A stretch of 64,000 nt of DNA. Source: a virus. Location: the IMG/VR virus record IMGVR_UViG_3300009370_000003; one strand, 5' to 3'. The notes beneath the pieces were generated by a model. It saw only the letters and a list, made by a program, of their open reading frames with translations. It was not told where the DNA came from and searched no databases. The translations under genes were made by a program, and so were the position numbers. This document shows positions 3,901-48,019 of this stretch, one piece after another; position 1 is the first letter of the stretch, and each line of letters opens with the position of its first letter.

Positions 3901-5535
3901 TGCAGTTATTTGAAACTGTCCCCATTCAGTTCTATTCTCAAGGTGAGCAACATCTTCTATTGCACCGATAACCCCTTCTGCAGCGTTTCCGTCTGCATTC
4001 GAATTATCAAATACAACTAAGTCCCCGCCATTGTATCCTGTTCCACCGTCTTCAACATAGACTTTATCTACTCCACCCCTTCTTAGTCCGTTGACAACAC
4101 CAAAGGATAATACTGTATCTCTTCCACTCTTACCACTCGTAAACTCTAATCTATCATTTAAGGAATACATAGAACCAAAACTTTGGTGTTCGTTTAGTAA
4201 ACCTCCTGATATAGTGTCATTAAAGTAATCTACATTCTCAGCCGTAGCTGAACCGTTTGCAGTTAATGTTGCATTAGTATCATCTTCGATACTTGCTATT
4301 ACATTTGTATATTTTGTATTGCCTACTTTATATGCAACGGTATCTCCAACCTTAAAGTCTGATAAGAATCTAGCACCAGCTGCACCTATTAATTTTTTAT
4401 CAGTGGTTGAAGTTGTTATATTTCCTTTACCCTGTATACTTTCTAACAGTATACTGTCTCCGTCTTCCTGTGCTACATAAATTGACGATTCTGTTTCGTC
4501 ATAATCAGATAGAATACCTTTAACTCTTCCAGTGACCTTGGTCACTCCGTCTCTATCTACAAATGTGCAAGGCCACTCATGGATAAATGTTCCAAAGTGG
4601 TTTTTTGTAATCTCTAATGAGTATTCTGCTCTTTGTGCGCTCGTTGTTGAAATATCGTAAACATTCTCTACGATTGATTCGGCTATAATTGTGACCCCGT
4701 CTAATTCATATTGAACCACCTTATCAGTTGAACTTGGACGAGTTTTAACATCGTCCATGACAACTGCAATTCTTCTTTGGTCATTATATCCTGACTCTGA
4801 TACTTGGATTGTTTCGTCTATAGGATATCTAATCTCTGCGTCCATGCCATACAGGAATCGCAGTAATAATTCTAATGATTGTTTTGTTCCTTTAGATTGA
4901 TAAAGGCCACTAATGTTTTTAATCGTTAGTCTTGCGTCTTTAGTGTCGTCTATGTCTAACGAAGGTATGAAATCTTTTTGGAAGTAATCTAAAAATTCTT
5001 CCGTTGTCTGATCAACATCTGAATAATTCAGTAGTTGATTGTTTGCAAGGATAGTATTATGTTTATATGTTTTAACTACACCAGTTTGTTTACCTTGCCT
5101 ACTGGTAACCGTTTCACCTGCGTCAAATCCATTTCCTTGGATTGTTTCTAGATATAAAGTATTACCATTAATTAATAGTATCTTTGCAACTGTTTCAGTT
5201 CCTACCCACTCACCTAGAATCCACTTCCCGCCGACAATATAGTCTCCGACTTGAAAAGGATTCTTGTCTGGCATTTCATATAATAATTTAGAAGTTGCAC
5301 TATCAGGTGATGGGTGAACGGTTGCTGGTTCTACGAGAAGATAACCTAAGTCATCTTCAAGTAGAATTTCGTCCAGCTCCCCTTGAGATTCGAGAACTAA
5401 TATCTCTGCTTCAAGGAATTCGAAGTATGCCTTTAGGAACTGCTCAAATATTGGTGCGTCTTCCTGAATAAAATCAGGGACTAGAGTGGATATCCTATCA
5501 GATAACCTATCAATATTGAACGCGTCCTTAGCCAT
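955..5535 (-). CDS. gp7: Baseplate wedge initiator gp7-like, 1526 aa
   Basis: N-term VPDFIQED..F..FLKAYFEFLE, LYQSKGT..S..LLLRFLYG, YQTHSYVV..W...VKDLVHPAGHIFFGEV; lies between gp6 and gp8. Confidence 0.85.
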   Translation of the reverse strand: MAKDAFNIDRLSDRISTLVPDFIQEDAPIFEQFLKAYFEFLEAEILVLESQGELDEILLEDDLGYLLVEPATVHPSPDSATSKLLYEMPDKNPFQVGDYIVGGKWILGEWVGTETVAKILLINGNTLYLETIQGNGFDAGETVTSRQGKQTGVVKTYKHNTILANNQLLNYSDVDQTTEEFLDYFQKDFIPSLDIDDTKDARLTIKNISGLYQSKGTKQSLELLLRFLYGMDAEIRYPIDETIQVSESGYNDQRRIAVVMDDVKTRPSSTDKVVQYELDGVTIIAESIVENVYDISTTSAQRAEYSLEITKNHFGTFIHEWPCTFVDRDGVTKVTGRVKGILSDYDETESSIYVAQEDGDSILLESIQGKGNITTSTTDKKLIGAAGARFLSDFKVGDTVAYKVGNTKYTNVIASIEDDTNATLTANGSATAENVDYFNDTISGGLLNEHQSFGSMYSLNDRLEFTSGKSGRDTVLSFGVVNGLRRGGVDKVYVEDGGTGYNGGDLVVFDNSNADGNAAEGVIGAIEDVAHLENRTEWGQFQITATANQTLFKGKDDNGKRILFNDNSVKVFDNGVLQVPYTDYTFKNDRVTFVNGRTAGHIIEIYTAFNNVLYEDGQRIQLNTTESYIRNVVITSPGTGYSELPQCFPGGYIYFDKATDIVWYDTLNRRQGYLEGEVVTGATSSATATIVRIDLENKRIIVKRTHTDVNQFTLAGEVITGGTSEVANTAVQCAVSSGTGAKLVAYSDEIGGVGSLNIQAQGYNYKNNQSLHSTSMFKMLVSTPTATLTTNLTFTGAITGSTGRVKKYDPNTHVLTFDTLDGHFLDNEVCDYNNIDKFTCLKFNPFQARGKVGGEGTIQRQLVTSESTLDESASNLHDGWLYQTHSYVVRVGESINKWRHVVKDLVHPAGHIFFGEVAVKEFVNPFDELTNVVGFERTKRFNFLPTIIIHGFPTYHIDIEEYGTGTGFNVDSPASGYVGDRRDDESNIILETSTEVYHPETGAFLYWADKNHMILEDAPDINAITEYLNEWEIYSTETSTFITEAGEVIVNEATSGQDLGGHFLLQDRLANEELATLIGFDESLIGNTHPFVGNGVDGTTVVVAPEGEPRFGPSSLDDSYGQRRFNIRILESIANAIVSTPMRIDTNPQGVSVSVEVENNGSQNVFKVNGVRNKHLELERDKTYYFTSSSTHPFRFSVTPDGSHNSGGTYTTGVSYGTTHTQITTSSSTPTTLYYFCTNHSGMGGTITNYTGNTHTSLSIDNVNNPSHSPYERLEGRFRMAESGIVLPAGMHQTLEEEWIVLEDGYSKFIIDDADDYNHLREEGESGSIYGGTFITEDGFTMALEDATITHSGAIEYLATERVTNSSNFTLNSIELEDGGALLDERTEGSTITSYVPFGSTIGDINKISEQQTYDISYYLLNNDGVLHTTDAKDTTNTEEDRIILESGVPHPDDVGGSSPNYIDGGLSAVLMETSKHSGLTISDMDSFLPNYRMKNFDLKENRRTDITWGSYVISSNITNSTLSSL

Positions 5536-14963: not shown

Positions 14964-15847
14964 TGGAACACATACATTTAAACGCACATAAGGTAAAATA
15001 CTATGAAAATGGTGAGCAACCTTCTAGTTATCACCAACGAGACCCCGTAGCAGTAGAAGAAGTCAAACAAAAGTTCGAAGAAGTGTCAAAAGTCGGCCAT
15101 CCTAAGATAATAACACTGCATGAAGCCCAAAAAGAAGGCATAGTTCAGACTAAAGGGTATTATAACGACAAACCAATGACCCCTTTAGAGGCATATGGTT
15201 ATGTATGGCTTGATAATGCCTATAAAACAGAATATCCTGACCCAAAAACAGCTAAAGGCCAAGAGTGGAGTGACTTTTTAATGAAACCAATCGAAAATCA
15301 AGTGTTTCATTGCATTAAGATACAATGGTTAGTCAATATCATACAAACAGAGGGCCTTTATTCTTGTCCTCAAGCGGTATTAAGAAAATCTCAATGGTTT
15401 GTCCATCCCGGCCAGTTCAGAGTTCATGCTATTACCTATACTGACTGTAATGAAGAGTTCATTGTTTGGGATACTAAGAATATTTTACCTCAACCCGAAA
15501 TAGATTATGAAGAATGGTGGTCTAGATACAGTCACCATACAGATAAAGGTTTATTTGCAGCAGTCTTTGAAGATATTGTAGAAATGCATGTCGGAGAATA
15601 TCGCCAAGACCTATATGATAAGGTTGCTGGTGGGATAGATTGCTTCCAAGGTGTTAAACCAATACTCGAAGGAACATGTGACGAGAGCATAGCACATTTA
15701 TTCACCCATGGAACATACGAGGGCCACGGGATAGGGATTGTAGGACACTTTACCTTTGAAGATTTACAACATGTATGTGACTTCCACCCAACAAAGCAAT
15801 ATATTGGCAAAGAAAACTTTACTTTGTATAACAATTATCATAAATAA
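14963..15847 (+). CDS. Hypothetical protein, 294 aa
   Basis: Long ORF coupled to kdsB (TAATG overlap). Confidence 0.7.
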   Translation: MEHIHLNAHKVKYYENGEQPSSYHQRDPVAVEEVKQKFEEVSKVGHPKIITLHEAQKEGIVQTKGYYNDKPMTPLEAYGYVWLDNAYKTEYPDPKTAKGQEWSDFLMKPIENQVFHCIKIQWLVNIIQTEGLYSCPQAVLRKSQWFVHPGQFRVHAITYTDCNEEFIVWDTKNILPQPEIDYEEWWSRYSHHTDKGLFAAVFEDIVEMHVGEYRQDLYDKVAGGIDCFQGVKPILEGTCDESIAHLFTHGTYEGHGIGIVGHFTFEDLQHVCDFHPTKQYIGKENFTLYNNYHK

Positions 15848-15852
15848 TAGAT

Positions 15853-19144: not shown

Positions 19145-21487
19145 ATGGCAAAAAAAGACGAAGACGGTCGCTCGAGTAAGCAAGCCGATGCATTTCTAAA
19201 AAAGGATCAACAACGATCCGAGAAATTGCAACAAGATAGGACAGACGCCCTTGAAAGGTGGACGAAGGCTAACGCTAATACTTATAAAAAATCTGCTGAG
19301 AAACTAAATGCTGCAGCTGAATCTGGCATCAAGGCCATGCAGGCAAAGGAAAAGGCAGACGCATTAGAAGTTGCAAATAGAGAAAGAATGGCAGCTTCAA
19401 GAGGTGTCTCTCTAGCCCAATTCGAAAAGACCATGGACGCAACCATGAAAGAAGGTTGGAGTGCAACAGAAGGAGTCTTCGAACCCTTAGACGAACTCGG
19501 AAAGTCTATGGGTAAAATCCAAGTTGACGGAACTATGGGTAAATCCCTTGGTTCTGCAAGTGGTGCCATTAAAGAATTAACTGGTGGTCTATTAGACCTT
19601 GGTGAAATGACTGGTGATGCAATGGATAAAGTGAAAGCAGTTGGAACACTCATTGCAACTCCGTTCAAAGTTGCAAACAATGCTATCGCAGGTGCAACAA
19701 AATTCTTTGGTAAGGAATTCAATCCCGGCCAGAAGATGGCAGACTGGTGGGGTGGAACTGAAACTCTTATAGAGGACGGTGATAAAAAAGCTACGAAAGG
19801 ATTTAGAGATTTAAAATTCAGTGAAAAAATGGGTAGGATATTTAGGCCATTTAGTCAGGGAGCTGAAGACGCAAAAGATAAATCAGAAGAAGGTGGTTCA
19901 AAAGTTTCTCAAGCTGGTGGTATACTATCTGCAGCTGGAGGTGATATAGAAGATGGTTCAGCTGAAGTTCCTAAAGCTGGTTCTAGACTATCTAAAGCTG
20001 GTTCTAAATTAGCTGATGGTTTTAATTCTTCCATGGAGAAGTTATCCGACTTAGGTGGAAGAATGAAAGAGAGTGCAAAGGCAATGGGAGCAGCGACTAT
20101 TGCATGGATAAAAAACTTCCCAGCAATGATGAAAGGATTGTGGGGAACCATAAAACAAATGGGGAAATCTGCAGCAGCATTCTTAATGGCTCTCCCAGCA
20201 CTTATAATATCTAGTATTGCATTTGTCGCAGGATTAATTGCCTCTGCAGTTAGTATGATGATTGCAGCTGCACCAATAATTGGTATTGCATTATTAATAG
20301 GGTTAGCAGTAGCAGCTCTTGTAATGGGTATTATGTTCTTAGTCCAAAACTTCGAATCTATTAAAACAACTATATCAGAAAAGATTACTGCAATGATAGA
20401 TAAAGTCAAAGCGGTTGTGGGTAATATCGCAGACTTCTTTTCTAATATCTGGCAAGATATATCTGACTTCATTCGAGAAAAGGTATTAAAGATTAAATCA
20501 ATCTTAGGTCTTACTTCTGATGCTGAAGAAGAAGAGTTAAAAGGTATTGAAGAAAGAAAGGCCAAGAAACAAGCAATGACCGATGAGGCAAACAAACAAG
20601 CCGCAGCAGAAATTGATGAAATGAGAGCTAACGGTGAACTCGAAGGTATGAGTCGTAGAGAAATCAGGAACCTTACTAAAGAGAAAGAAGCAGAAGCCCT
20701 CGCCCGCGTGCAAGAGGAAGCTGAGTTCCAAGCAACATCAGATGAAGACCTCTTGGCCATGAAACACAAACATGAGAAGTCACTCGCAGAAGAATTAGAA
20801 AACAAGAAAAATAGGGACTTTAATAAGTCCAAAGATGAAAGTCAGTGGGAACAAACGAAAGGTAACGAATTTAAGATGCATCGTTTGAATCTTGACGAAT
20901 CAGCTGAGGACGGTGGAAAAGCAGAATTCATGGAAATGCGAGAAGACGATCGCAACCAACGGTATGGAACAGAAGAAAATATAGAAAATAGAATATTATA
21001 CGATCAATTCAATGCAGATAGAGCAACAGACGAACTTAAAACAAGAGACGATTATATTGCATCTAAAGAATTAACCGAAGAAGATAAAGACGCTATCCAT
21101 GCAAAAGAACTTGGTTGGACACTGGGAGAATATCAGGCAGTAAAAGAGGCAGAAATTGCAGCAGGAAAGGAACACGAAGATTATTACGAAGGCAAGGGAT
21201 TCGGTGAGACTGACGATGGGTATGACTATGCACTACTTAATGCAAGAGCAAATTCAGAAGCTATTGATAGGGCAGACGGGGATAGACTTAAAGATGCTCG
21301 GGACGAAGCAGAACAACAAAAATACCTAAGTGACTTAAACACCTATGGTGCTGGTGGAAGCTACATACCACCAATGAATGCAGTTGCAGTTCAAAATAAT
21401 AGTGCTTCTAATATGGTTAGAATGCAAGACCCGTCAACAACAAATCCAGAGCCTACTGGCACTCGTCTTTCTGTAGTTCCAGCTTAG
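19145..21487 (+). CDS. Probable tail tape measure protein (gp29-like)
   Basis: 780 aa, helical, with a central hydrophobic Ala/Ile-rich segment; downstream of gp26/gp51. Confidence 0.7.
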   Translation: MAKKDEDGRSSKQADAFLKKDQQRSEKLQQDRTDALERWTKANANTYKKSAEKLNAAAESGIKAMQAKEKADALEVANRERMAASRGVSLAQFEKTMDATMKEGWSATEGVFEPLDELGKSMGKIQVDGTMGKSLGSASGAIKELTGGLLDLGEMTGDAMDKVKAVGTLIATPFKVANNAIAGATKFFGKEFNPGQKMADWWGGTETLIEDGDKKATKGFRDLKFSEKMGRIFRPFSQGAEDAKDKSEEGGSKVSQAGGILSAAGGDIEDGSAEVPKAGSRLSKAGSKLADGFNSSMEKLSDLGGRMKESAKAMGAATIAWIKNFPAMMKGLWGTIKQMGKSAAAFLMALPALIISSIAFVAGLIASAVSMMIAAAPIIGIALLIGLAVAALVMGIMFLVQNFESIKTTISEKITAMIDKVKAVVGNIADFFSNIWQDISDFIREKVLKIKSILGLTSDAEEEELKGIEERKAKKQAMTDEANKQAAAEIDEMRANGELEGMSRREIRNLTKEKEAEALARVQEEAEFQATSDEDLLAMKHKHEKSLAEELENKKNRDFNKSKDESQWEQTKGNEFKMHRLNLDESAEDGGKAEFMEMREDDRNQRYGTEENIENRILYDQFNADRATDELKTRDDYIASKELTEEDKDAIHAKELGWTLGEYQAVKEAEIAAGKEHEDYYEGKGFGETDDGYDYALLNARANSEAIDRADGDRLKDARDEAEQQKYLSDLNTYGAGGSYIPPMNAVAVQNNSASNMVRMQDPSTTNPEPTGTRLSVVPA

Positions 21488-21614
21488 AACCTTTCCTATT
21501 ATATTTGGTTTTGTCTTTTACGACTTTATGTTTAAAGGGACTATCTTTATCAAATAGTATTTTAGCATACCGAGATTTCGGTTTCTGAATTGTTCTTTTA
21601 CTTCCTTTTGACAT
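21453..21614 (-). CDS. ArfA-like basic peptide, 53 aa
   Basis: [53 protein letters not shown]; TGATG coupling to rpsU; not in ORF track. Confidence 0.55.
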   Translation of the reverse strand: MSKGSKRTIQKPKSRYAKILFDKDSPFKHKVVKDKTKYNRKGSKLELQKDECQ

Positions 21615-21856
21615 CACCACATCCAACTTCTTCGAGATTCTGCTAGTGCAGCTTTCTTTGCGTCAATCTTTTTCTTCCGTGTAATATCTTGATTCTTCTT
21701 ATGTCTCTTCTGATTAGGTTTGACATAATACTCTCTATCTCTACACTCTTGAATGATGCCTGCTCGTTCTACCTGTTTCTTAAACCTACGAAGCATTCTG
21801 TCGAATGGTTCGACATTTTTATTCTTCGGATTTATTCTAGGCGTAACTTGTGGCAT
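21614..21856 (-). CDS. rpsU: 30S ribosomal protein bS21
   Basis: [32 protein letters not shown]. Confidence 0.93.
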
Positions 21857-21874
21857 ATCTGTGTGTTATATAGT

Positions 21875-22052
21875 TTAAAAAAAAGTGTTAAGTCACCCCA
21901 CGCCTTACAGCAGTCCCGTTCTTAACCGATTAACCCGCATGATTTTGCTGTTAACCTTGCCCTTACTTGGTGCCCCCATTTCATTCCACGGCCCAAGTGA
22001 GTTATCGTCTGTATCACCTGACGGTCATTATGTAGCACGATAACCCCTATTC
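21875..22052 (-). ncRNA. Candidate structured RNA between gp32 and rpsU
   Basis: Four consecutive stems: GGGGTTATCGT/ACGATAACTC, ACTTGG-GCC/GGC-A-CCAAGT, GGTTAAC/GTTAATC, GTTAAG/CTTAAC, then T8. Confidence 0.6.
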
Positions 22053-22056
22053 GAAA

Positions 22057-47943: not shown

Positions 47944-48019
47944 TGGTGGAGCTGATAGGAATCGAACCTACGACCTACTGGATGCAAACCAGTCGCTCTC
48001 CCTACTGAGCTACAGCCCC
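47944..48019 (-). tRNA. tRNA-Ala(TGC)
   Basis: GGGGCTGTAGCTCAGTAGGGAGAGCGACTGGTTTGCATCCAGTAGGTCGTAGGTTCGATTCCTATCAGCTCCACCA; G3:U70 pair, encoded CCA. Confidence 0.97.

Follow-up and report, generated by a model that had tools for sequence, protein, structure and literature searches.

The rpsU locus and its mini-gene

We focus here on a two-gene locus in a 64,000-nucleotide (nt) stretch of viral DNA, IMG/VR record IMGVR_UViG_3300009370_000003. This whole stretch is referred to as the window, and coordinates refer to it unless another record is named. In it, rpsU, the gene for a phage-encoded ribosomal protein bS21, runs directly into a mini-gene of 53 codons. A reading of the DNA letters alone, hereafter the original prediction, had proposed that the two genes are translationally coupled and that the small basic product of the second resembles the ribosome rescue factor ArfA. 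The features of this module are the following; A1 denotes the narrow sub-family to which the window peptide belongs, dN/dS the ratio of non-synonymous to synonymous substitution rates and ORF an open reading frame.

21614..21856, minus strand: rpsU, phage bS21 of 80 amino acids, from Pfam, TIGR and PHROG matches
21612..21616, minus strand: TGATG stop/start junction, a signature of translational coupling, read from the sequence
21453..21614, minus strand: mini-gene of 53 codons with a basic product, assigned to a DUF7230-like, ArfA-related family from conservation, dN/dS and profiles
21492..21572, minus strand: conserved core, residues 15–41, from the invariant columns of the A1 and ArfA alignments
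21453..21487, both strands: 35-nt overlap of convergent frames, the 3' ends of the mini-gene and of a tape-measure-like gene, from the ORF list

The product of rpsU exceeds both curated cut-offs for bS21, with 53.8 bits against a cut-off of 27 for Pfam PF01165 (Ribosomal_S21) and 55.6 bits against 28.95 for TIGR00030 (E 3.4e-15), and it also matches PHROG 21469, 'ribosomal protein S21', at E 7e-14. Its TGA stop codon (21614–21616) and the ATG of the mini-gene (21612–21614) have one base in common, as the original prediction had read from the junction. The 53-residue frame contains the quoted basic motif letter for letter and ends in an ordinary TAG stop, and its last 35 nt do overlap the convergent gene, which is tape-measure-like by PHROG.

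The mini-gene is under purifying selection

A profile search of 1.8 billion representatives found the core in 61 clusters at 50% identity; ten close clusters have the mini-gene core in common and are invariant at residues 20–40. On the 27-codon core, dN/dS between the window and its relatives is 0.08–0.2, with synonymous sites near saturation. The relative L003 has an equal one-base junction with another stop codon (TAATG), the identical 35-nt convergent overlap is found in L003–L006, and in further relatives the mini-gene occurs at places without any gene overlap. The 53-codon ORF is a genuine gene under purifying selection, and the conservation on which the original prediction turned is thus found. 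An ORF that is short, overlaps two genes and is unnamed in any source might be suspected of having arisen by chance where rpsU ends and the tape-measure gene is overlapped, but with the core kept in so many clusters, dN/dS of about 0.1–0.2 and copies that overlap no other gene, this alternative is ruled out for practical purposes and has only a minute probability.

Contigs from RNA libraries touch both genes: one of 333 nt, from a relative that is 94% alike, spans 21340–21648, and thus the whole mini-gene, and a contig identical to the window spans 21695–21856 within rpsU. Since such contigs are strandless and RNA libraries can contain DNA, transcription of the mini-gene cannot be read from them, and the uncovered parts carry no information. 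A tblastn search of a phage collection with the window peptide and with the family member P0158 gave no match at E 1–10, which is not evidence of absence because the queries are short and lysine-rich and the low-complexity filter was on.

Relation of the family to DUF7230 and ArfA

The best match of the window peptide in both Pfam and the ESM Atlas is DUF7230 (PF23876; atlas cosine 0.92), and against this Pfam family the peptide alone reaches E 0.01 and 16.4 bits, below the gathering threshold of 27 bits. Across the aligned family of 62 members, DUF7230 is matched by 31 (best E 1.8e-8) and Pfam ArfA by four (PF03889; E up to 0.1, best E 8e-4). For comparison with ArfA we used a profile of 30 diverse ArfA genes out of 401 Pseudomonadota genomes; an initial contig scan with enterobacterial ArfA gave only close enterics, and the wider genome search was used for the profile. 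The whole family aligns to this profile in hhalign with a probability of 73%, P 3e-5 and a score of 25.8. Two further sub-families do so separately, namely A4 (probability 88.6%, P 2.6e-6, covering ArfA residues 12–53) and A5 (probability 68.7%, P 4.5e-5, over 31 columns). In 400 composition-keeping column shuffles the highest score was 19.8 and the median 8, against the real family score of 25.8, and the basic S21 family, taken as a negative control, scored 9. When the family profile was run against all PDB sequences, there were four matches at E up to 10, all of them ArfA (E 0.24–0.34), covering the very stretch that the original prediction had singled out, with an identical three-residue gap. 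Bridging members such as P0176 resemble ArfA minus three loop residues. Membership of the mini-protein in this DUF7230-like family and the likeness of the family to ArfA are thus clear, and the profiles suggest that the family as a whole is a distant ArfA relative.

DUF7230 was found in just two of the 401 Pseudomonadota genomes searched, and no mention of DUF7230 was found in the literature searched. The protein published as 'ArfA' in phage HTVC027P (L293, MN698241.1 about 15783–15851, minus strand) has a DUF7230-type N-terminal motif together with a KGxGS-type loop, and so appears intermediate between the two families.

Structural work on ArfA allows the alignment to be read residue by residue. 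Phe25 and the strand 27–30 of ArfA dock on the beta-sheet of the release factor RF2, the helix 15–24 contains Ala18, which is required for RF2 activation, and the basic tail, which includes the KGKGS loop and a KH motif, occupies the mRNA entry channel left empty (PMC8012679, PMC6299226), no single residue of the tail being essential (PMC6299226). The C-terminal two thirds of the mini-protein core, from residue 23 on, align with ArfA from residue 21: Phe27 falls on Phe25, residues 28–32 on the RF2-binding beta-strand, and a basic tail with Tyr38 and Arg40 follows. Across the family, the Phe27 column is nearly invariant as Phe or Tyr, and strand, Tyr and Arg follow in the ArfA order, the ArfA columns covered being Phe25, strand 27–30 and, in the basic channel tail, Tyr39, Arg41 and the KH motif. 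By alignment, the RF2-docking feature (Phe25 plus strand 27–30) is present in the mini-protein.

Pairing with S21 in other phages

Of the 102 distinct viral family peptides, 19 have an S21 gene as their immediate upstream neighbour in the same orientation. The loci compared were gathered with the alignments of A1, A4 and A5, and those of the more distant cluster representatives come from IMG/VR. The junctions are either tight, with gaps of −1 to 15 nt, or loose, with gaps of 134–194 nt; eight of the nine tight ones lack a transcription terminator inside the mini-gene, and all of the loose ones have it. The pair is kept as its flanks vary, from gp32 and the tape-measure-like gene in the window to a methyltransferase gene in L003 and CsgF/CsgG in L007. 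The linkage to S21 is thus real and recurrent, and it is confined to one phage lineage. No description of an S21–ArfA-like pair was found in the literature searched, and what is new here is the start–stop coupling with rpsU, together with the accompanying form that lacks a terminator. The records of phages HTVC008M and Mosig contain S21 and gave no match to the family profile, beside S21 or elsewhere; absence there is likely, not certain, as the first-look filter found no candidates.

Several further observations concern these neighbourhoods. In the loose gaps (L007:2806-3000; L023:3842-3979; L037, L045, L048), a T4-type late-promoter box, TATAAATA, lies about 33 nt past the S21 stop; after it come a Shine-Dalgarno sequence and, directly before the ArfA-like ATG, a mini-ORF of about 23–26 codons that is conserved and basic. 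The loose-gap unit ends at the in-frame terminator, and the gap mini-ORF is without a counterpart in the window. In one group of relatives (L007:3692-4949), genes of the curli secretion type, CsgF and CsgG, follow the pair at a distance of a few genes; HTVC008M has such genes too (L001:1005-2330). In relatives without S21 (L039:3759-3950, 4169-4447; L031, L033, L038, L041, L043, L047), the gene stands between two conserved genes, one for a 63-residue acidic protein and the other for a 92-residue protein with a hydrophobic N-terminus, the latter followed by a paralogous gene of 84–86 residues; these may be membrane or lysis-type proteins.

Terminators inside the reading frame of relatives

Of 27 distinct close relatives, 20 have a strong intrinsic terminator in frame immediately behind the core, made up of an A-tract, a G+C stem of 5 bp and a T-run; in the wider viral family it is present in 21 of the 102 members. 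The stop codon follows 7–47 nt past the T-run, often within the late-promoter box (TATAAATA) that belongs to the following gene. The stem shows compensatory change and the residues encoded by it are variable, which argues that selection maintains the hairpin rather than the tail of the peptide. A stop-less mRNA arising from an in-frame terminator or hairpin is a hallmark of arfA and of brfA, and by this design the product escapes tmRNA (transfer-messenger RNA) tagging when tmRNA is saturated and not otherwise (PMC8012679, PMC6881298). The design also occurs in a bacterial DUF7230 gene (L162:1480-1710, genome G176), where a classical intrinsic terminator lies in frame and the stop codon far downstream; this gene adjoins a Fic-domain gene. 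L003–L006 and L014–L022 are without an in-frame terminator and have an ordinary stop codon.

Genomic surroundings

Two features flank the module in the window.

19145..21487, plus strand: convergent tail tape-measure-like gene of 780 amino acids, context outside the module, from PHROG matches
21857..22056, minus strand: non-coding G+C-rich spacer of 200 nt between a gp32-like gene and rpsU, from fold, Rfam and RNA-library contigs

The 780-residue ORF matches two PHROG families named 'tail length tape measure protein', 1272 (E 9.4e-8) and 58 (E 3e-6). Upstream of rpsU, one gene encodes a single-strand DNA-binding protein resembling gp32 and another a helicase loader resembling gp59. At the DNA level, the closest phages in culture are Mosig and HTVC008M, both pelagimyophages, and Melnitz, a Methylophilales phage; the window thus stems from a marine T4-like phage that is uncultured. 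The spacer has a hairpin and a T-run at its end, just upstream of rpsU (fold z-score −2.0), and contigs from RNA libraries of two studies span 21896/21913–22056, ending near this T-run. An Rfam search of the region and of the spacer gave no match. As a weak hint only, the spacer could be the 3' untranslated region of gp32 with its terminator, or a small RNA; if it is the 3' end of the gp32 unit, rpsU and the mini-gene may form a separate two-gene unit.

The sole RNA gene detected in the window is a tRNA-Ala (anticodon TGC; 47944–48019, minus strand), and no tmRNA gene was found within its 64 kb. In Mosig, an annotated tmRNA (SsrA) lies a few kb from gp32 (L002:8435-8494; MT647606.1 111467-111805), S21 is present and no ArfA-like gene was detected. 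The Mosig tmRNA and the ArfA-like gene of the window may be alternative phage answers to stalled ribosomes.

Proposed function

We propose that the mini-protein is a ribosome-binding protein of a phage ArfA/DUF7230 branch, a release-factor-dependent rescue factor made together with phage bS21, and we give this reading about an even chance of being correct. Its lysine- and arginine-rich C-terminal half would enter the empty mRNA entry channel of ribosomes stalled on broken, stop-less messages, and Phe27 with the short strand that follows would pair with the beta-sheet of a release factor of class I, which in the ArfA model is RF2; the release factor would then hydrolyse the peptidyl-tRNA and free the ribosome. 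Decay of host mRNA during infection would create many stalled ribosomes, and a rescue factor could return them to the pool that makes phage proteins. Since the ATG of the mini-gene overlaps the rpsU stop and the frame is without an internal terminator, the window form should be made together with bS21 whether or not tmRNA is saturated, that is, ungated by tmRNA. Ribosome binding, release-factor recruitment and rescue are in each case what the family resemblance leads us to expect of the mini-protein.

A number of observations weigh against this proposal. First of all, by profile comparison the window peptide is among the least ArfA-like members of its family. Taken alone, it gives no match to Pfam ArfA at E up to 10 (threshold 25.5 bits) and E 0.21 against the ArfA profile built here. 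The A1 sub-family aligns to that profile with a probability of 2.8%, P 0.016 and a score of 15.2, which is within the shuffle range and not significant, and to the single E. coli ArfA sequence with P 0.1. The link of the window peptide to ArfA is thus transitive and is carried by the wider family, and short lysine-rich motifs can converge. The resemblance asserted by the original prediction therefore stands for the family, over the same stretch and with the same gap at KGKGS (P 3e-5 to 2.6e-6), and falls away for the window peptide or A1 on their own. Second, parts of ArfA are missing: there is a three-residue gap at the KGKGS loop in all alignments, the KH motif, which 72 of the 102 distinct viral family members have, is absent from the window peptide, and the N-terminal helix with Ala18 is aligned for A4 alone (ArfA 12–53) and unaligned for the whole family and for A1. 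Third, the window mini-gene has no terminator or hairpin in frame on this strand, and so it is without the strongest regulatory parallel to arfA and brfA. Fourth, 83 of the 102 viral family peptides have no S21 within 2.5–4 kb; the synteny with rpsU that the original prediction offered as a check is thus seen in a minority of 19, and none was seen in HTVC008M or Mosig.

Finally, the host is a difficulty. To our knowledge, ArfA occurs only in beta- and gammaproteobacteria, and cultured relatives of this phage infect SAR11, which belongs to the Alphaproteobacteria. SAR11 hosts lie outside the known range of ArfA, and host RF2 may not be a partner. A complex prediction with Caulobacter RF2 as a stand-in for RF2_PELUB, run with three controls, gave the mini-protein a score of 0.33 against a best control of 0.00, with runs that agree in at least 80% of contacts and a partner pLDDT of at least 55. 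The mark used for such predictions is reached by 58 of 80 solved complexes and by 2 of 110 mismatched pairs, and at 0.60 or under it is reached by 7 of the 80 solved complexes and by both of the passing mismatches. Moreover, ArfA–RF2 complexes have already been solved, so that a pass with RF2 may reflect memory or likeness only, and the prediction is weak as support.

Two alternatives have to be weighed against the rescue proposal. According to the first, which we think unlikely, the mini-protein binds the mRNA channel or decoding centre of the 30S subunit without rescuing the ribosome. It could block SmpB–tmRNA and thereby spare phage proteins made from truncated messages from degradation tagging, or it could silence or park host ribosomes, phage bS21 then marking those that stay active. 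The best-conserved likeness to ArfA is indeed in the channel-binding tail and the strand, and the loop and KH motif are altered in the window copy; a pure plug, however, would not need Phe27, the nearly invariant counterpart of the RF2-contacting Phe25, and the RF2 prediction speaks, if weakly, for a release-factor contact. Production together with a 30S protein would suit a channel binder, and the tmRNA that some related phages bear, Mosig for example, indicates that trans-translation matters to this phage group. The in-frame terminator of the relatives, on the other hand, fits a back-up rescue factor that is gated by tmRNA.

The second alternative, to which we give a similarly low probability, holds that the mini-protein is a generic basic nucleic-acid binder (for example one that chaperones RNA, condenses DNA or resides inside the virion), whose likeness to ArfA is convergent and whose place beside rpsU is inherited gene order. 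Basic composition by itself does not account for the match, as composition-keeping shuffles never reach the real score and the equally basic S21 family scores 9, and ArfA is the sole match in the PDB; yet the similarity spans only about 26–39 columns and is not significant for the sub-family of the window alone. The elements Phe, strand, Tyr, Arg and KH follow one another as in ArfA, with a single clean gap of three residues, which speaks against a generic binder. Location can be argued both ways: the gene sits at the edge of a block of tail genes and the great majority of the family (83 of 102) is away from S21, but where the S21–peptide pair exists it persists as the flanks change. In-frame terminators that recur in both phage and bacterial members also tell against a generic binder.

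Implications

If the rescue proposal is right, a wider reading suggests itself, which we put forward tentatively and hold to be somewhat improbable as a whole. DUF7230-like proteins would form a third, so far unrecognised lineage among the ribosome-rescue factors that depend on a release factor, widely adopted by phages, and one marine myovirus lineage would have joined such a factor to bS21 as a two-gene take-over unit acting in SAR11-type hosts without an ArfA of their own. This unit would exist in two regulatory forms, one gated by tmRNA through the in-frame terminator and one, that of the window, constitutive and coupled to S21. tRNAs, tmRNA, bS21 and hibernation factors are known phage cargo; as a phage-borne factor for the rescue of stalled ribosomes, we know of a single annotation so far, that in HTVC027P. 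Should the family free ribosomes from degraded host messages, this would explain how translation is sustained in slow-growing, ribosome-poor hosts such as SAR11, and ArfA-type rescue would extend far past the beta- and gammaproteobacteria. The recurring pairing with bS21 is a concrete and testable two-gene unit, and its natural forms with and without the in-frame terminator provide a ready comparison of tmRNA-gated with constitutive expression.

Comparison with known systems

Among the closest known systems is ArfA, also called YhdL, the RF2-dependent alternative rescue factor of beta- and gammaproteobacteria (Pfam PF03889; PDB 5MDV, 5H5U, 5U4I). Like ArfA, the mini-protein is about 50 residues long and very basic, and it has the Phe, the short strand and a lysine-rich tail with Tyr and Arg, to which most of the family adds the KH. 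Unlike ArfA, the window peptide is minus three KGKGS residues and has no KH, its gene has no in-frame hairpin and an ordinary stop, and the mini-gene is phage-borne, coupled to rpsU, outside the known host range of ArfA and below the Pfam ArfA threshold. The hairpin of arfA (PMC8012679) has its parallel in the in-frame terminator of many relatives, not of the window copy.

BrfA (YqkK) of Bacillus subtilis is likewise an RF2-dependent rescue factor, small and basic, whose KH motif sits in the mRNA channel; its mRNA becomes non-stop through a rho-independent terminator within the brfA coding region (PMC6881298). The same design is present in 20 of the 27 close relatives, and the window copy is without an internal terminator; the family profile, searched against the PDB up to E 10, did not pick up the BrfA chain. 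DUF7230 (PF23876), a family of uncharacterised small basic proteins, is matched by half of the family, and one of its bacterial members has a terminator in frame, but the window peptide, at 16.4 bits, remains under the 27-bit cut-off.

Phage-encoded bS21 is established (PMC6375957, PMC9723584), and that of HTVC008M enters ribosomes (PMC6375957). The upstream gene of the window encodes a phage bS21 like that of HTVC008M, and an ArfA-like neighbour is unmentioned in either report (PMC6375957, PMC9723584). A published phage parallel to the mini-protein is gp30 of the Pelagibacter phage HTVC027P, which is annotated 'ArfA' and reported to be highly expressed both early and late in infection (PMC12753301). 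In a six-frame search, this protein gave an ArfA score of 19.4 bits, itself under the Pfam cut-off. HTVC027P is a podovirus, and its gp30, unlike the window peptide, keeps the KGxGS loop and is not encoded beside an S21 gene; both are phage-encoded ArfA-like mini-proteins, and both belong to phages of the same host group.

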